Part shown: in pieces, positions 52,311-64,000 of the stretch
Layout of the letters: every line of letters begins with the position of its first letter
Numbering within the stretch: position 1 is the first letter of the stretch
Source of the DNA: an uncultured Pseudomonadales bacterium
GTDB taxonomy: Bacteria > Pseudomonadota > Gammaproteobacteria > Pseudomonadales > Azotimanducaceae
Direction of reading: 5' to 3'
Assembly (NCBI GenBank): GCA_963976815.1
Contig: CAXBLU010000007.1
Coordinates: 41,645 to 105,644, forward strand
Length of the DNA stretch: 64,000 bases
Translations under genes and position numbers: made by a program
The notes under the pieces: generated by a model
What the model saw: the letters and a program-made list of their open reading frames with translations, nothing else
Told to the model about the DNA's origin: nothing
The model's database searches: none

Positions 52311-52495
52311 ACGTTTACCCCGCTATGTCGGGTAGGAACTGTTTCTTGAATTGGTATTTCTTGAATTAGGACTATTTAGTTTAAGTGAGCAAATCCGGTT
52401 GTAAACAAACGATATGGTCTTAAAACCCCAAAATATATACCAGGGATGAGCCCGTACCTTTTCCCAGCGGACACCACCGCGTATGATGCCCGCCA

Positions 52496-52708
52496 ATGAA
52501 ATCACGACTTTCCAAAGAAGAAGCCCTGTCATTTCTCCTGACTTATTTGATCGTTGAGCGGCAGCAATCCTTCACCCTGAACCAGATGACCCTATTTAGT
52601 CTGTCCAACCTCGCATTGGAGGTGGAACATCGCTTAAGCAGCGAAGAGGGGCTTATTCCCCATGAGGTTATCGAAGCTCTGGCTGATCAATTTATCGAGA
52701 CTCTATAA
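52496..52708 (+). CDS. hypothetical small protein (70 aa)
   Basis: Its stop TAA is immediately followed by the ATG of the HAD gene (TAAATG), which suggests co-translation. There is no clear SD. Confidence 0.35.
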   Translation: MKSRLSKEEALSFLLTYLIVERQQSFTLNQMTLFSLSNLALEVEHRLSSEEGLIPHEVIEALADQFIETL

Positions 52709-53368
52709 ATGCTGAACCCCAGACCCGCTGCGCTCATTTTTGATATGGATGGCACTCTGCTGGATACAGAACCGCTCTACTCCGAGGCGACTCAAAAAGT
52801 ACTCGACCCTTATAACGCCACCTACACCATGGAGCTAAAAAGACGCTGCATTGGTGGAGATTCCCACACCAGCGCTCAGATTGTCATTGATGCATTTGAT
52901 TTACCGATGACTACCCAGGAATTTCTCACCCAGCGGGAGGTTCACTTAATGTCGCTGTTTCCCTCGGCTGCAGAAATGCCAGGGGCAGAAAATTTCATCA
53001 ACGCCCTGGCTGAAAAGGGCGTGGCACTGGGCCTGGCAACCAGTAGCCACCGTCACCTGGTCGACGTTAAGTTCACCCACCGGAGCTGGTCGAAGCACTT
53101 TTCAGTGGTGGTTTGTGGTGACGATGCAGAGTTAAAGCAAGGTAAGCCCGCGCCGGATATATTTGAGCTTTGCGCCACACGGCTTGGGGTTAAGCCTTCA
53201 GATTGTATTGCCTTCGAAGACTCACCCAACGGTGTTACCTCGGCAACTGCGGCGGGGATGCAGGTGATTGCAATTAATAGTCCTTATGTCGAACCGGGTG
53301 CACTGTCGAGTGCTGCCCTTGCAATCGATCACTATGACGAACTATCAGCCCTCATAGAGTCGATCTAG
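52709..53368 (+). CDS. HAD-superfamily hydrolase (beta-phosphoglucomutase-like subfamily IA)
   Basis: Motif I is FDMDGTLLDTE and motif II is LATSS. The late motif is FEDSPNGV. Confidence 0.85.
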   Translation: MLNPRPAALIFDMDGTLLDTEPLYSEATQKVLDPYNATYTMELKRRCIGGDSHTSAQIVIDAFDLPMTTQEFLTQREVHLMSLFPSAAEMPGAENFINALAEKGVALGLATSSHRHLVDVKFTHRSWSKHFSVVVCGDDAELKQGKPAPDIFELCATRLGVKPSDCIAFEDSPNGVTSATAAGMQVIAINSPYVEPGALSSAALAIDHYDELSALIESI

Positions 53369-53369
53369 C

Positions 53370-53816
53370 CTAGCTCTCTTTTTTGGACTGGTTTTGTGTC
53401 GTATTTCCCAATCGATTCCAGAATTCCATGTTCTGCTCCAGGGCTTTTCTCATCAGCGCCATAGGCTCCGCTCCGGCGAGGTCTTGCATTCTCGAACGAT
53501 ACCGTTGCTCATGGTCGAGGAACGTCGTAATACTCTGTTCAATATAGCGACTCACAACATTCTGCATCGGTGCACCATAGAAACGGATAAGCTGTTGAAG
53601 TACTCGATTGGTTAAAATCGGCTCATGGCCCTCCCCTTCCTGTTCAGAAATAATTTGTAACAGGACGGAACGGGTCAGATCCTTATCGGTCTTTGAATCA
53701 ACAACCCTGATCATGTCTCCCCGAAGCACAATTTTTCGGATATCTTCCACCGTCACATAGCAGCTCTCTTGAATATCATAGAGGCGACGATTCGGGTACT
53801 TCTTGAATTCTCTCAT
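53370..53816 (-). CDS. phaR: polyhydroxyalkanoate synthesis repressor PhaR
   Basis: The N-terminus KKYPNRRLYDIQESCYVTVEDI is the hallmark PhaR DNA-binding region. Confidence 0.85.
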   Translation of the reverse strand: MREFKKYPNRRLYDIQESCYVTVEDIRKIVLRGDMIRVVDSKTDKDLTRSVLLQIISEQEGEGHEPILTNRVLQQLIRFYGAPMQNVVSRYIEQSITTFLDHEQRYRSRMQDLAGAEPMALMRKALEQNMEFWNRLGNTTQNQSKKES

Positions 53817-53831
53817 TGGGCTAATTCCTAC

Positions 53832-54614
53832 TTAAGCGTACAGCGCGGCGAGGGCCGCTGGTCGTTGATACTTTACCCACTCATTGTCTGCCTGGGCCAA
53901 CCTATCCGCCACGATGTGGTAAATCGATGGATTAAAGGCCATGCCGCAGTGGCTGCCACAGACTCTAACATTCTGGGTTGTGCCGTCTTCAAACTCCTCC
54001 ATGCACCCTTCCCAGTGCACAACACCATCACCTTTACTATAAATGGCGGTCATTGGTACCGGAGGCGAGCTCGATTCATCAAAAAACTCTAGTGCATCAC
54101 GCATCTCTTCTGGTGTCATGCCCGTCGACCGCTCAAAGAGTTGAGAGACAATACTTGCCACAGCGTCACTCTTATCCATGCGAATGGGACTGCCTAGAGA
54201 AATGACCTGTCGAACATGTTGTGGATACAGTCTCGCGAGCTCACGGGCAAAAACACCGCCCAGACTCTGACCAATCAACGACACTTTACCTTCCGTTTGC
54301 TCCACCAGTTGAAGAAACATTTCCGGCAATTGTGTTGCCATGATGTCAAAACGACCGGTATTTCGGCCAAGATTCCAGCCCACCGGCGAATACCCCATAC
54401 GGGACAAATATTTTCGCAGAACTGCTGTCGATTCGTCACCCGCCATAAAACCCGGTAATACCATGACGCTGTGGCCATCACCCCTGGGCAGGGTACGCAA
54501 CAAAGGCCAGGTCATCGACAGGGCGCTGAGCTCAAACAGTGTGCGGGGAATCTCGGAGGCGAAATTCATCATCGAGGGGCCCCGGGGCTTCTCTACGTCT
54601 AGCTGTTCGTACAT
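53832..54614 (-). CDS. alpha/beta-fold hydrolase (Ser nucleophile)
   Basis: The nucleophile elbow is GQSLGG. Candidate Asp (SKGDGVV) and His (GSHCGM) residues are present. The gene ends 15 nt upstream of phaR, so the two are probably co-transcribed. Confidence 0.75.
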   Translation of the reverse strand: MYEQLDVEKPRGPSMMNFASEIPRTLFELSALSMTWPLLRTLPRGDGHSVMVLPGFMAGDESTAVLRKYLSRMGYSPVGWNLGRNTGRFDIMATQLPEMFLQLVEQTEGKVSLIGQSLGGVFARELARLYPQHVRQVISLGSPIRMDKSDAVASIVSQLFERSTGMTPEEMRDALEFFDESSSPPVPMTAIYSKGDGVVHWEGCMEEFEDGTTQNVRVCGSHCGMAFNPSIYHIVADRLAQADNEWVKYQRPAALAALYA

Positions 54615-54814
54615 CTACACCCCCCAAATCGTTGTTTTTGTTGCTTTGTTGCATTGAACAACGGTCCGAGTGTGGCGGAGTTAAGTTTGGGAAGCAAGGC
54701 TCTTTACCGGGAAAATTAACCCTATTTTGGCTTGCAAATTTGACCCCTAATACGCTCTTAACAATCGTTTATTAGACTTCCCCTGGATTTATTTTGTGGC
54801 AGTGCACAAATCAG

Positions 54815-54842
54815 TTGACGGAGGAATTTCGATGCCTATAAT
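54815..54842 (+). promoter_or_regulatory. near-consensus sigma70 promoter facing the WS/DGAT gene
   Basis: TTGACG (54815-54820) is followed by a 16-nt spacer and TATAAT (54837-54842). This lies about 300 nt upstream of the ATG at 55140. Confidence 0.45.
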
Positions 54843-55139
54843 CCGCGCCAACGCACCACCTTGGGACATGCTGTTCTCGCAATACCCCAAGATGGTGACC
54901 GGTCTGTCGTTTGAATCCACAAGATTAAGACATCAATTCGCTATAAGCCTTACAAAAACAATAGCTTAGGTCCACGAACCCTATGGTGGCATAAGCGTTG
55001 CAAGCCCTTATAGACAGATGTAAACCGCTATAGAGCGTTATAGCGGATTGTCAAAACTAACGGACAAAACTAACGGTCAAAGCAAACGGTTAACCAGGCG
55101 TTACACAGACTACTCATTCAAACTATTATGGAGGCGATC

Positions 55140-56630
55140 ATGGAAAAGCTGAGCATGCAGGATGCCACTTTTCTCTATTCAGAAACGGACAAGGTACTCA
55201 ATCAAATTGCGTCACTTCAGCAATTTGAATTGCCGAAGGACGTAACACCCCAGAGTTTCGTCACGAACCTCCGAACTTATCTGATGGATCGCATCCACCT
55301 GCTACCCTATCTCACCCGCAAAGTAAGAATGATTCCAGGTGGGATAGACCACGCTGTTTGGGTTCGGGACGGGAATTTCGACATCCACAATCACGTGGTT
55401 GAAGTGCCCCTGGAAGCACCGGGCACCTTCGAACAGCTGCAAGCCAAAGTTGCTGAGCTGCACTCTATCCCCATGAATCGTATCCGCCCCCTCTGGTGCA
55501 TGCACGTCATCACCGGGTTACAGGATGGCACCGTCGCTTACTATGCTCAGGTGCATCATGCCTGTGTTGACGGTATGGCCGGTCAAGCAATGACAATGAC
55601 CTTAACCGACGATACGCCAGAGCCCCAGGCGAAACATTGCCCGGCTGACTTTATTCAGGACGAAAATCCCAGTATGGCGGAATTACTCTCAGCCTCCTTG
55701 CAAAACCTCATGAGTTATCAATCTGGGAGTATGGCCCGTACTAGCGGCATGATGAAAACTGCCACAAGACTTGGTCAACGCATGATTGATCCCGGGAAAT
55801 CTTTTGGCGCTCTCGGCCAGACCGCTCCGGATACAGCATTCAACCAATCGATTGGCAGAGATCGTACATTCGCCTGTACTAAGATTCCCCTTACTGACGT
55901 GAAAAAGATCGGTAAAACCATGGGTGCCAGCGTCAACGACGTATTCCTCACGGTCTGCGCCGGTGCTCTCCGTCGTTATCTAGCACGTAAAAATCAATTA
56001 CCAAGACGCAATTTGATTGCAGGATGTCCCGTCGCCATTCCACGCGCGGCGCATTCCAATCAGGGCAACAGTGTCAGCATGATGAGCGTGGACCTATTCA
56101 CATCCGTTGCCGATCCCCGAGTTCGCTTGCTCCGAGTGAAGAGTTCCGCTAATACCGCAAAAGAAGTGACCGCGGAACTTGCCGAGGGCATGGACAGCAA
56201 TGTTTCACTCCTGGGTCTGCCCCTATTGACCCAGGCCGCAAGTTGGGTCAACGAATTTAGCCGAGCCTCAGACACTATGACAATGCCATTTAACGTTGTC
56301 GTGTCGAATGTGCCAGGTCCTAGAACCCCGCTCTACGCCAACGGCGCAAGGATGCTGAGCCACTATCCGGTTTCTATTCCAACCCACGGTCTTGGATTAA
56401 ACATCACTGTACAAAGCTACTGTGACGGTCTATTTGTTGGCCTCACCGCCTGCAAGAAGGCGGTTCCAGACCTTGATGTTCTGCGGGACGACCTCTTTGC
56501 TTCTTTTGTTGAGCTAAAAGCGCTGACGTTACCCGCAAACATAACCGAGATAGGTGTTCAGACGACTCCAGAGGTGAAAAGCACCCCGGCAACCGGCGAA
56601 AAACCTGAAAATCTGACAAAAGTTGCTTAA
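55140..56630 (+). CDS. wax ester synthase/acyl-CoA:diacylglycerol acyltransferase (WS/DGAT)
   Basis: The active-site motif HHxxxDG is present as HHACVDG (55554-55574). I moved the start to the ATG at 55140, which is preceded by GGAGG 5 nt upstream. The track start is 55128. Confidence 0.88.
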   Translation: MEKLSMQDATFLYSETDKVLNQIASLQQFELPKDVTPQSFVTNLRTYLMDRIHLLPYLTRKVRMIPGGIDHAVWVRDGNFDIHNHVVEVPLEAPGTFEQLQAKVAELHSIPMNRIRPLWCMHVITGLQDGTVAYYAQVHHACVDGMAGQAMTMTLTDDTPEPQAKHCPADFIQDENPSMAELLSASLQNLMSYQSGSMARTSGMMKTATRLGQRMIDPGKSFGALGQTAPDTAFNQSIGRDRTFACTKIPLTDVKKIGKTMGASVNDVFLTVCAGALRRYLARKNQLPRRNLIAGCPVAIPRAAHSNQGNSVSMMSVDLFTSVADPRVRLLRVKSSANTAKEVTAELAEGMDSNVSLLGLPLLTQAASWVNEFSRASDTMTMPFNVVVSNVPGPRTPLYANGARMLSHYPVSIPTHGLGLNITVQSYCDGLFVGLTACKKAVPDLDVLRDDLFASFVELKALTLPANITEIGVQTTPEVKSTPATGEKPENLTKVA

Positions 56631-56665
56631 AAACTAAAAATATTTGTTCTCGGCCCTTGATTTTA

Positions 56666-56697
56666 TTGCAGCGCACCATATAATGATGCAATGCAAC
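56666..56697 (+). promoter_or_regulatory. phasin-1 promoter with flanking TGC-rich repeats (candidate PhaR operator)
   Basis: The sequence is TTGCAGCGCACCATATAATGATGCAATGCAAC. TATAAT lies at 56679-56684 and TTGATT lies 16 nt upstream. 24 of 32 positions are identical to 57310-57341. Confidence 0.5.
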
Positions 56698-56756
56698 ATA
56701 GAGACACGGCCAAAGCTACGTTACAGCTGAGTTCACATACACAACGGAGAAATTCC

Positions 56757-57146
56757 ATGAACATTATTGAGAAACAAACTGAGCTGGGTAAGTCTTTATA
56801 CGAGATCAATACCAGCACAATGAAAGAATACTTGAGCATGCAACGCGCCAACATCGAGAAGTATGTTGAAGTTAATCGCGAGTTCGGTTCACGCTTACCT
56901 GAAGTGAAGGACATCAGCAGTGCTGTTGAACTTCAGCGTGAATACAACGGTATGCTCTGGGCACAAACCAAAGAAGCTATGACTGCCCAGACAGAACTGC
57001 TGAAAGGCGCATTCAGTGAAACACGCACTGCGTTGAAAACTGCTTACACGTTCGAAACTGACGTTGAAGCTGTAAAACCTAAAGCAAAAGCCAAGGCTAA
57101 AGCACCAAGCAAAGCTAAAGCTAAAAAGACCGCCGCCGCTGCCTAA
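56757..57146 (+). CDS. phasin family protein with a Lys/Ala-rich C-terminal tail
   Basis: I trimmed the track ORF to the ATG at 56757 (MNIIEKQTELGKSLYEINTSTMKEY), which has GGAGA upstream. It is a paralog of 57380..57691. The tail is KPKAKAKAKAPSKAKAKKTAAAA. Confidence 0.75.
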   Translation: MNIIEKQTELGKSLYEINTSTMKEYLSMQRANIEKYVEVNREFGSRLPEVKDISSAVELQREYNGMLWAQTKEAMTAQTELLKGAFSETRTALKTAYTFETDVEAVKPKAKAKAKAPSKAKAKKTAAAA

Positions 57147-57201
57147 AAAGCCAGCCTGGCAACATCTTTCAGCAGGTAATTGGTAGCTACCTGTTGTGAG
57201 C

Positions 57202-57246
57202 GGACTCCGCCGATTCTGTTTTTCCCTCTTCAGGTCGGTGGAGTCC
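57202..57246 (+). terminator. possible terminator hairpin after phasin 1
   Basis: GGACTCCGCCGA (57202-57213) pairs with TCGGTGGAGTCC (57235-57246) with one G-U pair. The loop is large (21 nt) and the sequence downstream is T-rich. Confidence 0.3.
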
Positions 57247-57309
57247 ATTTACCTTACTTTAATTCTCTTGTTTGATCTTCATTTTTTTGCAAAAAACCAC
57301 TTGCACTTG

Positions 57310-57341
57310 TTGCACTGCAATATATAATGTTGCACTGCGGC
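57310..57341 (+). promoter_or_regulatory. phasin-2 promoter with flanking TTGCACTGC repeats (candidate PhaR operator)
   Basis: The sequence is TTGCACTGCAATATATAATGTTGCACTGCGGC. TATAAT lies at 57323-57328. TTGCACT occurs at 57301, 57310 and 57330. Confidence 0.5.
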
Positions 57342-57379
57342 AAAAGATTAGACAAAACCATCACATTTGGATGAAGAAT

Positions 57380-57691
57380 ATGAACATCATTGAAAAGCAA
57401 GTTGAAATGGGCCGGGCCCTTTTCGAAATAAACCAAAATACAATCCAGGAATTGGCTCGCACACAGCAAGACAACCTGAAGAAGTACTTCGAATTAAACA
57501 GCACTTTCTCAAAGCGAATCCCATCAGTCACTGACGTGACGAGCTTTGTAGAACTCTCACGTGAATACAACGAAACGTTGTGGACCGGTGTTAAAGACTC
57601 TACTCGCGGTCAAGTTGACGTGCTCAAGAGCGCTGTTGAAGAAACTGGCGTAGCCGTTCGTAAAGCTTTTACTGTTGAAACCGCCGACTAA
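57380..57691 (+). CDS. phasin family protein (short paralog, no basic tail)
   Basis: The start MNIIEKQVEMGRALFEINQNTIQE was chosen by analogy with the first phasin. An alternative ATG lies at 57371. Confidence 0.72.
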   Translation: MNIIEKQVEMGRALFEINQNTIQELARTQQDNLKKYFELNSTFSKRIPSVTDVTSFVELSREYNETLWTGVKDSTRGQVDVLKSAVEETGVAVRKAFTVETAD

Positions 57692-57717
57692 ACCCCCCTT
57701 AGTTAAGTTGGTATTTA

Positions 57718-57746
57718 AAGGGCGCTCTATGCGCCCTTCTTTTTTT
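57718..57746 (+). terminator. intrinsic terminator after phasin 2
   Basis: AAGGGCGC, a TCTAT loop and GCGCCCTT are followed by CTTTTTTT. Confidence 0.8.
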
Positions 57747-57784
57747 GCGCTCTAATAACCCCCCACCGGTCATGAGACAAAAAA

Positions 57785-58054
57785 ATGAAAATTACAGTTG
57801 ATGTTGATATCACCCCTGAAGAGCTACGACGATTTATTGGTCTGCCCAATGTCGAAAAGATTCAGAACGAGATGATCAAGAACGCTCAAAAATACCTCCA
57901 AGAATCCGGTCAATCTCAATACAAAGAACTTGTCTCCAGTGCTATGCAGCCGATGATGGCTTATCAGAGCTGGTTACAGCGAATGATGACCGGTGAAACA
58001 ACCAATTCGACTAAATCAAAACCCGACAAAGACGGAGCCAAAAATGATGACTAA
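57785..58054 (+). CDS. hypothetical small protein (89 aa)
   Basis: The ORF reads MKITVDVDITPEELRRFIGLPNVEKIQNEM.... Its last 11 nt overlap the start of the SDR gene, which suggests coupling. Confidence 0.5.
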   Translation: MKITVDVDITPEELRRFIGLPNVEKIQNEMIKNAQKYLQESGQSQYKELVSSAMQPMMAYQSWLQRMMTGETTNSTKSKPDKDGAKNDD

Positions 58055-58820
58055 AGGCACAGCGCTAATTACCGGCGCATCGTCAGGCATCGGAGCAGAG
58101 CTGGCCCGCTACTTTGCGAAACAACAATTTGACCTTGTGATCACCGCTCGACGCAAATCCAATCTAGACGCTTTGGCGACGGAGCTAGGCAGCTCAGTGA
58201 ATGTGACTGTTGTCAGCTGTGATCTGGCGGATTCCGCTGGTATAGAAGCCCTATTAACGGCCGTTTCAGAAATCGAAATTGATGTGCTGGTTAATAATGC
58301 GGGGATTGCCTATTCCGGGAACTTTCAAAGTCAGGATGAAGAAACCGTCTTAAACCTAATTCACTTGAATATCATTGCCCTGACGCGCCTAACACACAGA
58401 CTATTGCCCAATATGATCAATCGGGGCATGGGCAGAATTCTGAACGTTGCATCGGTTGCGTCATTTCAGCCAGTCCCCTCACTTGCGGCCTACGCAGCGT
58501 CTAAAGCCTATGTCCTGTCTTTAAGCGAGTCCCTGTCTGAAGAACTCAGAGGCACAGGTGTGTCGGTTACAGCCCTATGCCCAGGCTTAACTAAAACCGC
58601 TCTGTTAGACGAGGTCCAAGGCTTCGACGTCCCAATGGGCATTGCCTCCGCCCCTGCCGACGTGGCTCGAGAAGGGTATGATGCGCTAATGAAAAAGGAA
58701 GTCATCCGTGTCCCAGGCATTGCTAATCAGGCAGCACTCGCATGGGCAAAGCACCAACCCCGCTGGCTTGTTCGAGGTATCGGCGGGCTTGTTGCTCGAT
58801 TTAATCCAAACAATCACTAA
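58044..58820 (+). CDS. short-chain dehydrogenase/reductase (classical SDR)
   Basis: I trimmed the track ORF to the ATG at 58044 (MMTKGTALITGASSGIG). The motif NNAG and the catalytic YAASK are present. Confidence 0.88.
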   Translation: MMTKGTALITGASSGIGAELARYFAKQQFDLVITARRKSNLDALATELGSSVNVTVVSCDLADSAGIEALLTAVSEIEIDVLVNNAGIAYSGNFQSQDEETVLNLIHLNIIALTRLTHRLLPNMINRGMGRILNVASVASFQPVPSLAAYAASKAYVLSLSESLSEELRGTGVSVTALCPGLTKTALLDEVQGFDVPMGIASAPADVAREGYDALMKKEVIRVPGIANQAALAWAKHQPRWLVRGIGGLVARFNPNNH

Positions 58821-58840
58821 ATGCCATTTAGAAAAAGGAT

Positions 58841-59701
58841 TTGTTGATGACATGTTTTAAACACTGGACCCTGAGCATCTTCACCAGCTTAATCCTGGTC
58901 AGTGGAGCACAAGCCAGTTCCTGTGACATAGAACCCTCAAAACCAACAGCTGACGCCATCATCGCGTATCAAGCCTGCATCGACGCTGGTCATCAAATGG
59001 TGACTGACCTCAGAAATGAGCTCGGCACAAGATCATTCCAAACCGGCAGTTTCAAAACGGCGGTTGTTCACTTTTCGGAAATCATCGATCAACAGGACAG
59101 GCCCGGCAGAGCCCATTTCAACCGGGCACTGGCCTACCTGGAACTCGGTAAGGAAAGGCATGCCCTGAAGGACCTTGAAGCCGCCAATCAGATATTGCCT
59201 GGATATTCACCTGCACACTTCTATCGCGGCGTTACGCTGCATAAGTTGCGCCGTTATCAGCAGGCCATCGATGCATTTGGAGTTGCGCTCAACCTATCCG
59301 CCGGTGGAGCAGCACTTGCGCCAATCTATTTCGAAAAGGCCCAGGCTGAAATTAAGCGTAAGTACATTCAAGAAGCCCGCAAGAGCCTCGACAACGCACT
59401 TGAATCCGATCCCAGCTACTCAAAAGCCCTCTTTGCACGAGCGCTTTTACACAAAAAGTCCGGTGCGGATGAACTTGCCATCGCTGACTACAATCAGTAC
59501 ATCTTATCCAACCCCGAATCCGCCGAGGCCCACTACAATCGCGGCCTAATATTTCAGGATTTGCGACGGGACCACCTGGCTATTCAGGACTTCAATCGGG
59601 CGATCGAGTTGAACCCAAGGTATGTAAAAGCCAGGGCAAGCAAAGGGATTACCTACTTCTGGCCGGTGTTCCCTGTCTTGTTGGTGCTATTACTCGGCTA
59701 A
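58841..59701 (+). CDS. TPR-repeat protein with a signal peptide and a C-terminal hydrophobic segment
   Basis: The signal peptide ends in ...LVSGAQA. Several TPR-like units are present (AHFNRALAYLELGK, AHFYRGVTLHKLRRYQQAI, AHYNRGLIFQDL). The C-terminus is ITYFWPVFPVLLVLLLG. Confidence 0.75.
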   Translation: MLMTCFKHWTLSIFTSLILVSGAQASSCDIEPSKPTADAIIAYQACIDAGHQMVTDLRNELGTRSFQTGSFKTAVVHFSEIIDQQDRPGRAHFNRALAYLELGKERHALKDLEAANQILPGYSPAHFYRGVTLHKLRRYQQAIDAFGVALNLSAGGAALAPIYFEKAQAEIKRKYIQEARKSLDNALESDPSYSKALFARALLHKKSGADELAIADYNQYILSNPESAEAHYNRGLIFQDLRRDHLAIQDFNRAIELNPRYVKARASKGITYFWPVFPVLLVLLLG

Positions 59702-59757
59702 ACTTTTTTACACCGAATCCGTGTCACACTGAATCTGTTCTACCGGTCTAGATCTTT

Positions 59758-60681
59758 ATGTATCGGCTTATCCTTTTATTTTTGGTTATTTCTCAACCAC
59801 TTATCGCTGAACCACTTAAGGTTCCCGGCGGCGAGTTTGATATTGAGTGGAAAACCCCCTTCAGTCAGCAAGAAAAAGCAACGCTCATCAGTTGGCTCGA
59901 ACACGCCGCTACCTCCGCCAGTTTGATTAATGGAAGTTTCCCCCGCAAGCAGACCCATGTGCTTATCCAGCGGGCGAGCCGAGGTACTGGCCCCGTGCCC
60001 TGGGCGAACACCATTCGACATACGGATCCCCAGGGCGTTTCCTTCCACGTGAACCCCACAGCTGGGCTCGAGGCGCTAAAAGCCGACTGGACCGCAACCC
60101 ACGAGTTTAGTCATCTCTATTTGCCCTACCCTGGCCGGTCGGATATCTGGATATCAGAGGGATTCGCAAGCTACTACCAGAACATTTTTATGATGAGAAA
60201 AGGCACACTGAGCGAAGTTCAGGGATGGCAGAAAATTGCAGACGGATTTGCGAGAGGGCAAGCCGATCTCAATCAAGACATTTCGCTCCAGCAGGTCAGC
60301 CGGGAAATGCGCTCCAGACGTGCCTTTAAACGTGTATATTGGTCCGGCGCACACTATTTCCTCGAAGCTGATATTGCCCTACGCCAACAATCAAGTTCCC
60401 TGGATGAGGTGATATCCAAGTTTATGACCTGTTGCCGAGAGCACCCAGCGGAATGGGATGGGGCAAAAATCGTCGAGGCCCTTGATAAGGCGCTTGATCC
60501 AACCGGAACAACTCGTCTCTTTACGCCCCTATATCGCCAGTACCAACAGTCTATGGGACTTCCCGACTATCGCAGTACCCTGACCAAAGTGGGGGTTTTG
60601 ATTGCCGATAAGCAGATATCCCTGAGCCCCGAAAGTGATACTAGAACAGCCCTAAGGCAAGCCATTTCTTCGCGCCCCTAA
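59758..60681 (+). CDS. secreted MA-clan gluzincin-like metallopeptidase (HExxH-x18-E)
   Basis: The signal peptide is MYRLILLFLVISQPLIA. HEFSH lies at 60100-60114 and is followed by WISEGFASYY. The third-ligand Glu is 18 residues after the second His, which resembles Peptidase_MA_2/M1-type sites. Confidence 0.6.
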   Translation: MYRLILLFLVISQPLIAEPLKVPGGEFDIEWKTPFSQQEKATLISWLEHAATSASLINGSFPRKQTHVLIQRASRGTGPVPWANTIRHTDPQGVSFHVNPTAGLEALKADWTATHEFSHLYLPYPGRSDIWISEGFASYYQNIFMMRKGTLSEVQGWQKIADGFARGQADLNQDISLQQVSREMRSRRAFKRVYWSGAHYFLEADIALRQQSSSLDEVISKFMTCCREHPAEWDGAKIVEALDKALDPTGTTRLFTPLYRQYQQSMGLPDYRSTLTKVGVLIADKQISLSPESDTRTALRQAISSRP

Positions 60682-60742
60682 AAGGCGAATCTTGGACTCT
60701 GTGCTATATTTCTAGCTAGAACAAATACCAAAAGGATGGGGT

Positions 60743-62908
60743 ATGTTATCCGGGCTCCGCGGAACACTTCTAGCTAGCTGTGGACTGGTTTTCCTGTGTC
60801 CATACTTTTTATTCGCCGCGACTGACAACACAAACTCAGGGCCCGATCAATTTGAACAACTGATTCAACAGGCCTCCATCTATCAGAGCCGGGGCTATCG
60901 CAATCAGGCGGTTGCACTCCTGCAAAAAGCCGACAACCTCAAGGACGCAAATCAAACCCAGCGAATCCAATCGGGCTTACAACTTGCTCGCCTCTATTTT
61001 GAGCTTGGTGAGTATCCGCTGAGCTTGAATATGACCAGTCGGATATTGGCTCAAGGAGCACCCGAGGCCAGTCGAGCTGAAGCACTGAATATTCTGGCAA
61101 CTGTGCAGAGCACCCTCAATAAACCGAAAGTGGCGAGTGATACCTTCTCTGACGCAGTTACAGCAAGCGAGTTGTCCGTGGATAAACGGTTAACCAAAAT
61201 TATTCTCGCCAACCACTTAAGACATGAATTGGATTATGGAAAAAAGACCGCTGCCGTTGAACTAGCGACACGGCTCACACCTCTGGTCATGGCATTGGGG
61301 AATCAAAAAGAGTCAATCGAACTTCAAATCTCTACTGCTGAATTATTTATGCGTCTTTCGCTTTTGGCTCCTGAAACCAACAGCAGATCAAAGGCGCAAA
61401 CTCTGCTCGAGCGTGCCGCAGCAAACGCAGACGCGCTGTCAGACCCGAGGCTGCAAAGTTACGCTATTGGCCATCAAGGTCGAAACTTGATTGACCAGGG
61501 CAATTTAGCCGAGGGTTTACAGCGCCTCAGCACAGCGACATTTCTTGCAAACAGTAGCCGTTCCTTTGAGAGCGCTTACCTGTGGCAGTGGCAAACCGCC
61601 CGGGCTTACCGCTTGCAGGGGAAAACCAAAATGGCGGTGGCAGAATATCAAACCGCCATCTCGACTCTCGAGCAGGTAAGAAAAGAACTCATCAACGGCT
61701 CACCGTTCACTTTCCCCCAGAAGATCCAACCACTATTTTCTGAGTTATCTGATCTGCTACTCACCGCTGCACGATCATCCGCTATCCACTCCGACCAACA
61801 AACCTATTTGAAACAGGTACAGCATGTCCTAGAACAATCCAAATCTGCTGAGCTTCAGGATTACTTTCAAAACGATTGTGTCATTCCCGATGAGAGTATG
61901 GATCTCAACAATGTTGGCGTTGCAACCGCTGTTATCTATCCCGTGATTTTGCCCGATCGACTCGAAGTCCTGGTTAACATTGGTGACCAGGTCCATCAAT
62001 TTGTTGCTCCCACCACCGACAGCGATCTCAGGATGCTTGCTAACGACTTCAGGTACAACCTGCAACGGGATCAAGGTGATGATGAATACAAAGAACTGGG
62101 TAAAGAGCTTTACGATATGGTCTTCGCTGACGCTGAGGCTCTATTAAAAGCGCACAGTATCACCACCTTACTGATCATCCCGGACGGCATCCTACGGACT
62201 ATTCCTTTTTCAGCGTTCTATGATGGCAATGAATTTCTAATCCAAAAATTTGCCCTTGCGACGACGCCAGGTATTAGCCTTACCCTGCCAAAACACCTTG
62301 ATGTTGCTCAGGCTAGCTTGTTTGCTGGCGGCATCTCCGATGCGGTCCAGGGCTTCAGCGCCCTCCCGGGGGTACCGGTTGAACTCCTAAAATTACAGAA
62401 CGACTATGGTGCGGATGTCCTGCAGGACGAAAAATTCAGCCTCAACGCGGTTCAATTACAGCTGGGTTCCGCCGACTACTCCGTTGTTCATATCGCCACC
62501 CACGGTCACTTTGACAGCAATCCCCAGGCCTCCTACCTTCTCACCCATGATGACAAATTCACGATGGACTCCCTTGAACAGAGTATTGGGAGTCGACGTC
62601 AGACGGGAAACCCACTTGAACTGCTTGTGCTCAGCGCCTGTGAAACTGCCGTCGGTGACAATCGAGCGGCCCTGGGTCTCGCGGGTGTGGCACTCAAAGC
62701 CGGAGCGAGAAGCGCAATCGCCACACTTTGGCAGATTAGTGATGCCGCCACGGTTGAGGTGATTACCGATTTCTACGCAGGCAACACCACGGGCAAGATG
62801 AGTAAAGCCCAATCACTCCAATTTGCACAGACTCAACTGATAGCCTCGAAACGTTTTTATCACCCAAGTGACTGGGCACCCTTTTTATTGATTGGAAACT
62901 GGCTATGA
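60743..62908 (+). CDS. TPR-repeat plus CHAT-domain (caspase-like) protease with a signal peptide
   Basis: The N-terminus is hydrophobic and leader-like, and roughly 350 aa of TPR-like helices follow. The C-terminal CHAT core has His in VVHIATHGH (His codon 62501-62503) and Cys in LVLSACETA (Cys codon 62639-62641). Confidence 0.8.
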   Translation: MLSGLRGTLLASCGLVFLCPYFLFAATDNTNSGPDQFEQLIQQASIYQSRGYRNQAVALLQKADNLKDANQTQRIQSGLQLARLYFELGEYPLSLNMTSRILAQGAPEASRAEALNILATVQSTLNKPKVASDTFSDAVTASELSVDKRLTKIILANHLRHELDYGKKTAAVELATRLTPLVMALGNQKESIELQISTAELFMRLSLLAPETNSRSKAQTLLERAAANADALSDPRLQSYAIGHQGRNLIDQGNLAEGLQRLSTATFLANSSRSFESAYLWQWQTARAYRLQGKTKMAVAEYQTAISTLEQVRKELINGSPFTFPQKIQPLFSELSDLLLTAARSSAIHSDQQTYLKQVQHVLEQSKSAELQDYFQNDCVIPDESMDLNNVGVATAVIYPVILPDRLEVLVNIGDQVHQFVAPTTDSDLRMLANDFRYNLQRDQGDDEYKELGKELYDMVFADAEALLKAHSITTLLIIPDGILRTIPFSAFYDGNEFLIQKFALATTPGISLTLPKHLDVAQASLFAGGISDAVQGFSALPGVPVELLKLQNDYGADVLQDEKFSLNAVQLQLGSADYSVVHIATHGHFDSNPQASYLLTHDDKFTMDSLEQSIGSRRQTGNPLELLVLSACETAVGDNRAALGLAGVALKAGARSAIATLWQISDAATVEVITDFYAGNTTGKMSKAQSLQFAQTQLIASKRFYHPSDWAPFLLIGNWL

Positions 62909-64000
62909 GACCGATACTACTATTTACCATCGGTCTGCTTGTTGTCTTGCCGGTCCAGGCGGAAAACTACTACGTCGTCACCGGAAGCTTTGAGTCCAAA
63001 ACCAGCGCCGAAGATCAGGTCAATAAAGTCAGACAATGGTTTTCACCCACCACCATCACAGAAACGAAGGTCCGCGGGATAACTCGGTTTCGAGTTTTGG
63101 TTGGCCCGATCACGGATCCCTCAACAGCGGAGCAAACCCGAATCAAGGCCGCTGATCGAGGCTTTAGCCAAGCCTGGACCTTTGCAGAAAACTCAAAGAC
63201 TCAAACGAGTTCAAGCGTAAAAAAACCTGATACCGTGGCTCTTTCAAACCCTTCAAACGATTCAAGCACCTCAGGCCCATCTCCCGCTTCAGACCCTAGA
63301 ATCAGTCGTCAAAGTCATATTGAGGTTAGTCGTTTTATCTACACAGCGCCGGCGCTTGAATCTGGAGTGTCAGAACTACTGGCTACGGTCTCGAACAGAC
63401 AGATTCAAACATCAGAGTTGCTGGGTGTTAAAGACCGGATTAATCAACTCTACGTAACCAATGGCTACGTGAATACCGGCGTTATTATCCCAGACCAACA
63501 AATTCACAATAGCGAGCTTGAACTGCAATTCATTAGCGGGAAAATTTCAGAGCTACAGATCAATAGCCAATTGCGCAGACGATACATTCAGAGCCGATTA
63601 GACATTAGCGAACCCTTCAACCTGGTTCGCTTACAGAGCTCCCTCAAGCTATTAGAACAAGACCCGATGGTTACTCGCATAGATGCGAGGGTAGCGCCCG
63701 GCGTAAACCCCGGTGAGGCGACACTAGCACTGGAGGTCGAGACCTCGCCAAAATTTCAGATTGAGCTATATGCCGCAAATGATCGCTCGCCATCGATTGG
63801 CAGCGAAAATGGCAAGCTTACATTTGCCGCGACTAACCTAACGGGCTGGGGAGAAACCTATCGCGTGGGCACATCCGTTACCGAAGGACTCGACGCCTTT
63901 GATGCCACCATCGGTATACCTCTCACCTCCGGCGGCACCAGCCTGCAACTTCAATACGCACTCAGTGATTCATCCGTCATTGAAGAGCCTTTTGATGATA
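62905..64000 (+). CDS. ShlB/FhaC/HecB-type (TpsB-like) outer-membrane transporter with an N-terminal SPOR domain; 3' end beyond the window
   Basis: This gene is absent from the ORF track because it has no stop codon in the window. Hand translation from the ATG at 62905 shows a signal peptide (MRPILLFTIGLLVVLPVQA). A SPOR-like domain follows (YYVVTGSFESKTSAEDQV...FRVLVGPITDPSTAEQ), then a Ser-rich linker, then a POTRA_2-like region (LGVKDRINQLYVTNGYVNTGVIIPDQQIHNSELELQFISGKISEL) and the start of the barrel (LYAANDRSPSIGSENGKL...NLTGWGETY). The ATG overlaps the CHAT gene's TGA (ATGA). Confidence 0.75.
   Translation, partial: MRPILLFTIGLLVVLPVQAENYYVVTGSFESKTSAEDQVNKVRQWFSPTTITETKVRGITRFRVLVGPITDPSTAEQTRIKAADRGFSQAWTFAENSKTQTSSSVKKPDTVALSNPSNDSSTSGPSPASDPRISRQSHIEVSRFIYTAPALESGVSELLATVSNRQIQTSELLGVKDRINQLYVTNGYVNTGVIIPDQQIHNSELELQFISGKISELQINSQLRRRYIQSRLDISEPFNLVRLQSSLKLLEQDPMVTRIDARVAPGVNPGEATLALEVETSPKFQIELYAANDRSPSIGSENGKLTFAATNLTGWGETYRVGTSVTEGLDAFDATIGIPLTSGGTSLQLQYALSDSSVIEEPFDD

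Follow-up and report, generated by a model that had tools for sequence, protein, structure and literature searches.

A TPR-CHAT protein gene in a conserved operon with two-partner secretion genes of marine Pseudomonadales: a candidate protease for the C-terminal anchor of TpsA

Two-partner secretion (TPS) is described in textbooks as a minimal system composed of one transporter, TpsB, and one cargo, TpsA. To our knowledge, the maturation, retention and shedding of the cargo are known for a few pathogens only, in which the proteases concerned are encoded elsewhere. The bacterial CHAT proteases of which we are aware have so far been assigned to intracellular defence (Craspase, SAVED-CHAT), together with one anti-sigma factor. 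In this study, we focus on a stretch of 64,000 nucleotides (nt) from an uncultured Pseudomonadales bacterium (hereafter the window), at the 3' end of which a gene for a protein with tetratricopeptide repeats and a caspase-like CHAT domain (TPR-CHAT) overlaps a tpsB gene. These last two genes of the window are the first two of a three-gene operon, chat-tpsB-tpsA, and we discuss how the TPR-CHAT protein may act on the TpsA that is encoded together with it.

TpsA proteins pass through TpsB in unfolded form. Both HMW1 and HxuA keep a small disulfide-bearing C-terminal domain in the periplasm, which locks the protein to the pore, and CdrA, held by a 'cysteine hook', is shed upon cleavage of its C-terminal tail by LapG, a cysteine protease of the periplasm. 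The CdrA/CdrB-LapG system of Pseudomonas aeruginosa, which combines a C-terminal Cys anchor on TpsA with a periplasmic cysteine protease, is the closest functional analogue of what we propose here. LapG, however, is a transglutaminase-like enzyme unrelated to the caspase/CHAT fold, is encoded elsewhere, is controlled by cyclic di-GMP via LapD and cuts at a TAAG site, whereas the candidate protease of the present locus is encoded inside the operon and is translationally coupled to tpsB, and TAAG is absent from the last 175 amino acids (aa) of the TpsA. No LapG-family match was found by Pfam or NCBIfam in the four proteins encoded at the 3' end of the window, nor a LapD-like gene at the locus. 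A three-gene TPS operon with a 'third partner' is also known from Haemophilus influenzae (HMW1/HMW1B/HMW1C); HMW1C is a cytoplasmic glycosyltransferase, whereas the third partner here would be an exported protease. We found no sequence relationship of the HMW1 and HxuA tails to the TpsA tail of this locus, in which the second Cys is the final residue. In Bordetella (FhaB/FhaC with SphB1, CtpA and DegP), the TpsA is likewise matured or released by dedicated proteolysis; SphB1 is a surface subtilisin autotransporter with its gene outside the fha locus, whereas the CHAT gene lies inside the operon. A 2017 review of TPS places the genes of maturation proteases outside TPS operons, and therefore chat-tpsB-tpsA would be an exception.

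On the side of the putative protease, the only extracytoplasmic TPR-CHAT protein with a solved structure is DdvA of Myxococcus xanthus (PDB 8ROT/8RW5), which shares its architecture and its dyad positions with the window protein. DdvA forms dimers, spans the membrane once, carries a zinc-binding anti-sigma domain on the cytoplasmic side and has an extracytoplasmic function (ECF) sigma partner controlling CBASS (cyclic-oligonucleotide-based anti-phage signalling) and CRISPR (clustered regularly interspaced short palindromic repeats). The window protein, in contrast, is predicted to be soluble after cleavage of a signal peptide that leads directly into the TPR region, contains no transmembrane segment or anti-sigma domain, and has its gene next to TPS genes; the marine loci have no sigma gene beside it. 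Csx29 (Craspase, type III-E CRISPR) and separase are also TPR-CHAT proteases with a His-Cys dyad, latent until triggered, and are among the best full-length structural matches, but they are cytoplasmic or nuclear, and Csx29 binds gRAMP/Cas7-11. Against the Csx29 model NF041237 the window protein reached 22.7 bits (cut-off 300), and its neighbours are TPS genes rather than cas genes. A preliminary description of the window, made from its sequence, had presented an exported CHAT protein as a different kind of system. This needs qualifying, since with DdvA a periplasmic TPR-CHAT protein is not in itself unprecedented.

The preliminary description had reported four co-directional open reading frames (ORFs) on the forward strand at the 3' end of the window, the last of which runs off the end, and all four were recovered (Table 1). 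Pfam agrees with the domains that had been named, i.e., TPR, metallopeptidase-like, TPR-CHAT and ShlB-type transporter, and export signals at all four N-termini were seen by inspection (charged n-region, hydrophobic core, AxA-type site). The window ends inside tpsB, 764 nt short of the 3' end of this gene. A contig of the same species, L017 (loci other than the window are designated by L numbers), aligns with window positions 52342-64000 without gaps over 11.66 kb at 99.77% nt identity. There, tpsB is directly followed by a gene for a TpsA of 1,431 aa (L017:12380-16675), which contains the TPS domain (Pfam PF05860) with the motifs 'NLFHSF' and 'LVNPAGF', and matches TIGR01901, the filamentous-hemagglutinin N-terminal domain, with 47.9 bits (cut-off 29.1). 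It had been remarked that no canonical TpsA was in view. This is literally correct, but it does not amount to an absence: the window ends within tpsB, and therefore the missing TpsA is a window-edge effect. Contigs of the same species carry the same genes upstream of the triad as the window does, and a database protein 100% identical to the window CHAT protein (P0001) is encoded on three contigs. A scan for promoters and terminators gave the same counts as shuffled sequence and was uninformative on operon boundaries.

The genes of the triad overlap one another, tpsB and tpsA by 11-44 nt, and chat and tpsB by the ATGA that had been noted earlier and that was read directly. Stoichiometric co-expression, which had been derived from this ATGA, goes beyond what a 4-nt overlap shows, whereas translational coupling is retained. 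The overlap of 4 nt (ATGA or GTGA) is kept in L017 and in 11 of the 12 gammaproteobacterial loci found in a genome scan, the exception being L001, where tpsB (L001:12169-13261) appears frameshifted. In L016 (9860-12103), two ORFs of 339 and 372 aa take the place of a single CHAT gene. Both cases are either pseudogenes or assembly errors of metagenome-assembled genomes (MAGs).

The genome scan recovered 16 related CHAT loci in all. The 12 gammaproteobacterial ones belong to marine Pseudomonadales and Azotimanducaceae MAGs, and their CHAT proteins are 48-70% identical to that of the window. In 12/12 of them CHAT is followed by TpsB, and each has an adjacent ORF of 1,389-2,019 aa with a TPS domain, so that they display the features of type Vb systems, namely a TpsB with POTRA and a ShlB/Omp85 barrel and a neighbouring TPS-domain TpsA. 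The triad was also found on three further contigs in varied contexts. In L026 it stands alone in an unrelated context, without the two genes that precede chat in the window (a TPR protein gene and an M61-like gene), and its CHAT protein is 65% identical to the window's, compared with 58-59% for the syntenic L027 and L028; the triad thus moves as a unit. In addition, a metagenome scan with a CHAT-domain profile gave more than 581 relatives, of which 80 loci were kept and scored by hidden Markov models built from the alignments of this study. Among the loci in which CHAT had flanks of at least 5 kb each, 12 of 12 contained a TPS-domain gene bearing the C-terminal module described below, 10 of 12 TpsB and 8 of 12 DUF928. 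With at least 2.5 kb on both sides, some TPS component was found in 20 of 22 loci, and for the other 24 metagenome loci lacking a TPS component, the sequence on one side or both falls short of 2.5 kb. CHAT, TpsB and TpsA therefore form a conserved unit whose members move together. According to the preliminary description, its idea would fall if a canonical TpsA lay directly downstream and, in addition, the CHAT-TpsB adjacency were not conserved; the TpsA is indeed downstream, but the adjacency is conserved, and the idea is thus not refuted.

In lineages other than the marine clade, the genes mostly run as TpsA-TpsB-CHAT-DUF928, or else as CHAT-DUF928, with the opposite strand encoding tpsB and tpsA. 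Cyanobacterial CHAT domains are 35-38% identical to that of the window, and the cyanobacterial order consists of one to five tandem TPS-domain genes, CHAT, DUF928 and a CHASE2 hybrid histidine kinase; plasmids of Nostoc punctiforme and Nostoc PCC 7120 carry annotated examples. In 9 cyanobacterial CHAT loci, the flanks that were retrieved showed no TpsB gene. DUF928 proteins are exported, have a length of about 230-310 aa and show 'GGxRG', a Gly/Arg-rich stretch near the N-terminus (four repeats in L106), and their gene lies beside the CHAT-TPS genes in L012-L015, L021-L023, L025 and most of L039-L108. Neither in the window nor in its marine relatives was DUF928, CHASE2 or another conserved sensor found beside the triad. 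In L005 a hybrid kinase gene comes right after tpsA, an adjacency that is not conserved among the gammaproteobacterial loci.

The TPR-CHAT protein matches the Pfam CHAT model with 185.8 bits (cut-off 24; E 1.6e-54) from profile position 2 to 289 of 289, and thus combines a family match above threshold with a conserved His-Cys dyad. Its N-terminal TPR matches in Pfam are weak. The dyad, which the preliminary description had called intact, was checked in three alignments (A1, A3 and A5). His587, together with Gly588, and Cys633 are invariant in 16 CHAT orthologues from two phyla, and in an alignment made with the CHAT-domain profile they fall on H862 and C907, the structurally defined dyad of DdvA. 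Only this profile gave a usable DdvA alignment; the full-length profile matched mostly TPR proteins in the PDB, and a PDB search with the single CHAT sequence gave no match. With regard to defence systems, no meaningful match to the CHAT protein was found among the PADLOC models (best BovA, E 0.0013, 15 bits). All 16 orthologues have N-termini that resemble export signals by inspection. A lipobox ('LASC' at residue 13) was considered and rejected, as neither its position nor the orthologues fit.

The mature protein would contain two cysteines only, Cys633 and Cys379, the latter situated upstream of the Pfam CHAT domain within the invariant 'AELxxxFxxxC' and kept across two phyla. Redox-controlled latency, or a thiol-disulfide exchange with the cysteines of TpsA, is conceivable via this pair. 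An AlphaFold2 (AF2) model built from alignment A3 has a mean predicted local distance difference test (pLDDT) of 75 and a predicted template modelling score (pTM) of 0.68, with a confident TPR superhelix, and the best full-length Foldseek matches are the TPR-CHAT protein Csx29 of Craspase, DdvA and separase. The model is unreliable at Cys379, and its pLDDT falls below 50 at residues 587-598 and 630-667, around the dyad; therefore, we make no claim on the geometry of the active site.

The transporter begins with a signal peptide (by inspection), which is followed by a SPOR domain, a linker rich in Ser, Thr and Pro, and POTRA_2. The complete protein of 619 aa on L017 (99.8% identical contig) comprises SPOR, POTRA_2, ShlB (PF03865) and Omp85, and contains no cysteines. 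The ShlB/Omp85 barrel is present in all TpsB orthologues, and in the window's own gene it lies beyond the window. Fusion of SPOR to TpsB is seen in most marine orthologues (the window, L003, L005, L006, L008, L011, L016, L027 and L028), while SPOR is absent from the TpsB of L007, L009 and L026. SPOR is a family of peptidoglycan-binding domains, through which the secretion pore may be fixed to the cell wall. SPOR and CHAT are both unmentioned in a survey of Omp85/TpsB architectures.

The most characteristic part of the TpsA is its C-terminus. In the window's species, the mature TpsA contains exactly two Cys residues: that of 'LPEFISNNC' lies 56 residues before the C-terminus, and that of 'GPGC' is the very last residue. 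The pair brackets a loop of about 55 residues within a conserved C-terminal module of about 120 aa, and the two-Cys pattern recurs in 13 of 13 marine TpsAs. The CHAT-linked TpsAs of cyanobacteria show a Cys pair around a C-terminal loop of about 95 residues (10/10), which in 8 of the 10 represents the only cysteines of the mature chain. MAFFT aligns the marine and cyanobacterial tails in register, with both Cys columns invariant. Among the distant metagenome loci, the module occurs in 28 of the 29 TPS-domain ORFs with an intact 3' end, and in 21 of these 28 the sequence that follows the TPS motif contains exactly two Cys, in most cases about 60-100 and 1-6 residues before the C-terminus. Identity to the L017 TpsA amounts to 54-74% in the last 120 aa, 46-71% in the TPS domain and 26-58% in the repeat-rich centre, and the region inside the Cys loop is hypervariable. 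No Pfam or NCBIfam model matches the module. A search with a profile of the module returned 729 proteins, mostly cyanobacterial ones annotated as 'S-layer family' or 'filamentous hemagglutinin'. In the reciprocal direction, a TPR-CHAT gene was found directly 3' of the module-bearing gene in 3/3 assessable sampled loci; the fourth sampled locus, L024, was left out, as its contig breaks off within a tandem array of TpsA genes.

At the other end of the protein, a conserved N-terminal extension ('M..ASIFAW.I.M.SK') precedes the signal peptide of TpsA (L017:12380-12412; also L001, L002, L003, L006, L011 and L026). It overlaps the 3' end of tpsB and is reminiscent of the extended signal peptide regions that some type V substrates have.

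One metagenomic locus joins the two proteins. L080:5894-10822 is a single ORF of 1,643 aa, free of stop codons and of N, in which a signal peptide, a TPS domain, a beta-helix and the module up to its first Cys are followed by TPR-CHAT; the signal peptide of CHAT and the TpsA tail past the first Cys are both missing. This TpsA::TPR-CHAT ORF may be a natural Rosetta-stone fusion or may stem from faulty assembly.

One of the two possibilities raised in the preliminary description was that the CHAT protein processes or regulates a cargo whose gene lies past the end of the window, and it is the one favoured by the conserved linkage, the Cys-bracketed module and the TpsA::CHAT fusion. We propose that a periplasmic TPR-CHAT protein cleaves its cognate TpsA at the C-terminal anchor, a proposal for and against which we find the balance to be even. 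In such a system, CHAT, TpsB and TpsA would all be exported by Sec, and TpsB, as an Omp85-type outer-membrane pore, would recognise the N-terminal TPS domain and translocate a beta-helical TpsA of about 1,400 aa. By analogy with HMW1, HxuA and CdrA, the Cys-bracketed module is taken as a putative anchor: its loop, closed by a periplasmic disulfide, would act as a stopper that holds TpsA in or under the TpsB pore. The TPR-CHAT protein would be a soluble, periplasmic cysteine protease of the caspase fold, the TPR half of which may dock on the module while His587 and Cys633 cut near it. The cut would mature TpsA or release it from the cell surface, much as LapG acts on CdrA or SphB1 on FhaB, but by an unrelated enzyme that is encoded inside the operon. 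Our confidence that the CHAT protein is functionally tied to TpsA in some way is considerably higher than our confidence in the cleavage of the anchor.

Several points weigh against this proposal. The localisation, the protease activity and the substrate are predictions from sequence and gene context, and the signal peptides were judged by eye and not by a trained predictor. The module and the TPS domain are both markers of one TpsA subfamily, and therefore their co-occurrence with CHAT cannot show which end of TpsA, if any, is cut. The tail contains no conserved candidate for the P1 residue; many tails have an Arg near 'RRDP' or 'GRGG', but this Arg is not invariant, and therefore no cleavage site is proposed. 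The low pLDDT of the AF2 model coincides exactly with the surroundings of H587 and C633. DdvA, the sole solved periplasmic TPR-CHAT protein, lacks the three-helix active-site motif and its proteolytic activity is unproven. DUF928, an extra exported partner in most non-marine lineages, could be the real substrate or a regulator, and the TpsA::CHAT fusion was seen on one metagenomic contig only.

The anchor cleavage could also be read more broadly, as an ancient and widespread extracytoplasmic caspase switch, in which a caspase homologue kept latent in the periplasm would, on cue, cut TpsA off from its disulfide-locked anchor, with DUF928 and CHASE2 as regulators or sensors where they are present. 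We put this forward tentatively and consider it somewhat doubtful. As a variant, the anchor might be transferred to another acceptor, by analogy with the clan-CD enzymes PorU and GPI8.

Among the alternatives, the one that survives best retains TpsA as the substrate but moves the site of action: the TPR-CHAT protein would remove the N-terminal TPS domain or a pro-piece, a step for which HMW1 and CdrA provide examples, or would serve as a periplasmic chaperone and quality-control protease, with its TPR half binding unfolded TpsA, and clear stalled TpsA from TpsB. The conserved linkage is explained equally well in this way, and the TPS domain, too, is conserved in this TpsA subfamily. The TPS review names several TpsAs for which no N-terminal maturation protease has been identified, and in CdrA an unknown enzyme cuts at residues 437-438; TPR arrays, moreover, are generic peptide-binding scaffolds. 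However, the cyanobacterial CHAT gene comes directly after the 3' end of a module-bearing tpsA, the fusion joins TPR-CHAT to the C-terminal module and not to the N-terminus, and this module is the most distinctive feature that CHAT-linked TpsAs have in common across phyla. We regard the alternative as unlikely.

A signalling or regulatory protease is less probable still, and in our view improbable. The TPR-CHAT protein would sense an envelope or extracellular cue, and a cut in the TpsA tail, in DUF928 or in itself would relay the signal, for example to CHASE2 kinases. The consistent addition of DUF928 and a CHASE2 hybrid histidine kinase in the cyanobacterial clusters is in line with this, as are the hybrid kinase right after tpsA in L005, the role in signal transduction proposed for the periplasmic TPR-CHAT protein DdvA, the fact that TPR-CHAT proteases typically rest until triggered, and the hypervariable interior of the TpsA Cys loop. 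The marine clade, however, has no DUF928, CHASE2 or conserved sensor beside the triad, the kinase adjacency is not conserved in the gammaproteobacterial loci, and the window CHAT protein has no anti-sigma domain or transmembrane segment.

The preliminary description had treated the TPR gene, the M61-like gene, the TPR-CHAT gene and tpsB as one envelope cluster, in which the first two products would be additional processing or scaffolding partners. All four genes are co-directional, with gaps of 56-61 nt ahead of the overlap and no convincing terminator between them, all four products have export signals, and the order is kept in L011, L027 and L028 at 58-70% CHAT identity. In these three loci, however, which are the only ones outside the window's species (L017, L018) where TPR and M61-like genes adjoin CHAT (tblastn and gene calls), the whole surrounding block is conserved: HAD, PHB_acc, WS/DGAT, phasins, DUF6489, SDR, TPR, M61-like, the triad, and downstream DsbA and DUF1295. 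Both genes are absent at the triad in the other contexts (L001-L010, L016 and L026), an M61-like gene was linked to CHAT in 0 of the 80 metagenome loci, and the M61-like family, with 978 matches, many of them with PF05299, is widely found on its own. As TPR and M61-like genes accompany CHAT only where the whole block is conserved, they are ordinary synteny neighbours and not partners; a single four-gene system is thus highly unlikely, and the two genes are unrelated envelope neighbours of the triad.

The weakest alternative, also raised in the preliminary description, is that the TPR-CHAT protein is itself a non-canonical cargo of TpsB, destined for the surface or the outside of the cell, for which its signal peptide and its translational coupling to the transporter could speak, but we dismiss it as very remote: the protein has no TPS domain by Pfam or NCBIfam, as had been noted, a canonical TpsA follows in the same species and is present in every related locus, 9 cyanobacterial loci pair CHAT with TpsAs and no TpsB gene within the fetched flanks, a large helical TPR protein that folds beforehand is unlike the beta-helical, cysteine-free substrates that thread TpsB pores, and in the fusion CHAT lies C-terminal to the anchor module, in the part that is expected to stay periplasmic.

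The two neighbours themselves differ in some details from their earlier description. For the TPR gene, the ORF stands, but the start is more likely the ATG at 58847 than position 58841, and gene calls on a near-identical contig give 284 aa. The hydrophobic C-terminal tail that had been described is present ('WPVFPVLLVLLLG', window 59650-59701) and conserved in 4 orthologues, which suggests that the protein is periplasmic and anchored by its C-terminus. A conserved Cys lies just after the predicted cleavage site of its signal peptide; a lipobox was rejected here as well on account of its position and the orthologues. In the M61-like protein, the HExxH motif (HEFSH) is confirmed, while the spacing to the downstream Glu is 14 residues (E134) and not the 18 that had been given; HEFSH-x14-E134 is invariant in 20 homologues, and the match to the family model itself is borderline. 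Further upstream, window positions 53832-58054 hold a cluster for neutral-lipid and polyhydroxyalkanoate storage, which is syntenic in L011, L027 and L028 (Table 1).

Table 1. Coordinates of the features at and upstream of the TPR-CHAT locus (nt positions are those of the window; residues are those of the respective protein).
Feature	Position	Strand	Basis or remark
TPR-CHAT gene, 721 aa	60743..62908	+	first gene of conserved triad; Pfam CHAT, orthologues in 12 genome and 80 metagenome loci
Signal peptide of TPR-CHAT	about residues 1-26	+	by inspection
TPR superhelix of TPR-CHAT	about residues 33-374	+	AF2 model, weak Pfam TPR matches
Cys379 codon, motif 'AELxxxFxxxC'	61877..61879	+	invariant from gammaproteobacteria to cyanobacteria
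CHAT domain	residues 451-719, nt 62093-62899	+	Pfam PF12770
Putative catalytic His587 codon, motif 'HIATHGHF'	62501..62503	+	invariant in A1/A3/A5; aligns to DdvA H862
Putative catalytic Cys633 codon, motif 'LSACET'	62639..62641	+	invariant in A1/A3/A5; aligns to DdvA C907
ATGA, overlap of CHAT stop and TpsB start	62905..62908	+	read directly
tpsB, first 365 of 619 codons	62905..64000	+	cut by window end; Pfam SPOR, POTRA_2; full gene L017:10564-12423
SPOR domain of TpsB	residues 20-90, nt 62962-63174	+	Pfam, 31.6 bits
POTRA_2 domain of TpsB	residues 155-212, nt 63367-63540	+	Pfam, 32 bits
TPR protein gene, 286 aa	58841..59701	+	Pfam TPR families (TPR_2 E 2e-24)
M61-like gluzincin gene, 307 aa	59758..60681	+	Pfam Peptidase_M61 borderline, 22.5 bits (cut-off 22)
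HEFSH and Glu134 of the M61-like protein	residues 115-119, nt 60100-60114; Glu134 codon 60157-60159	+	M61-like zinc motif
Alpha/beta hydrolase gene	53832-54614	-	storage cluster
WS/DGAT wax-ester synthase gene	55128-56630		storage cluster
Phasin-like genes	56691-57146 and 57272-57691		storage cluster
DUF6489 gene	from 57785		storage cluster
SDR gene	57993-58820		follows storage cluster

Downstream of the triad, about 4.7 kb past the 3' end of the window, a DsbA/FrnE-like gene lies on the reverse strand, convergent to tpsA (L017:16698-17330), and a similar one is found at L006:11649-12240. It contains an in-frame TGA at the first Cys of its CxxC motif ('DFV-U-PWC'), with conserved coding continuing upstream of the TGA. 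The same TGA occurs in a genome whose DsbA/FrnE-like protein is only 59% identical, and a hairpin of -13.3 kcal/mol starts 4 nt after it. The gene probably encodes a cytoplasmic selenocysteine oxidoreductase unrelated to the TPS system. Its use as support for a disulfide in TpsA was considered and rejected, as the product has no signal peptide and is probably a cytoplasmic selenoprotein.

In a literature search, we found no paper linking CHAT to two-partner secretion, although most subscription-journal papers were not covered and a prior mention is possible. The co-occurrence of CHAT and TPS genes is visible in public annotations. A three-partner TPS system with an operon-encoded caspase-like protease thus appears to be undescribed. 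A translationally coupled protease of the caspase fold encoded within the operon would add a third partner to the system and open the release step to direct testing, with a defined prediction, namely a cut near the Cys-bracketed C-terminal anchor, and it would give the bacterial CHAT proteases a role in the envelope with an identifiable substrate. If the broader reading as an extracytoplasmic caspase switch is true, the system would represent a new class of three- or four-component type Vb systems and would provide the first physiological substrate for an exported bacterial CHAT protease, in a range that extends over marine gammaproteobacteria, cyanobacteria and many soil and freshwater lineages. 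The CHAT-TPS module is common, as seen from the numbers of metagenome relatives and of module-bearing proteins given above, and it occurs in filamentous cyanobacteria as well as in abundant marine Pseudomonadales, in which it may control adhesion, aggregation or the turnover of the surface layer.

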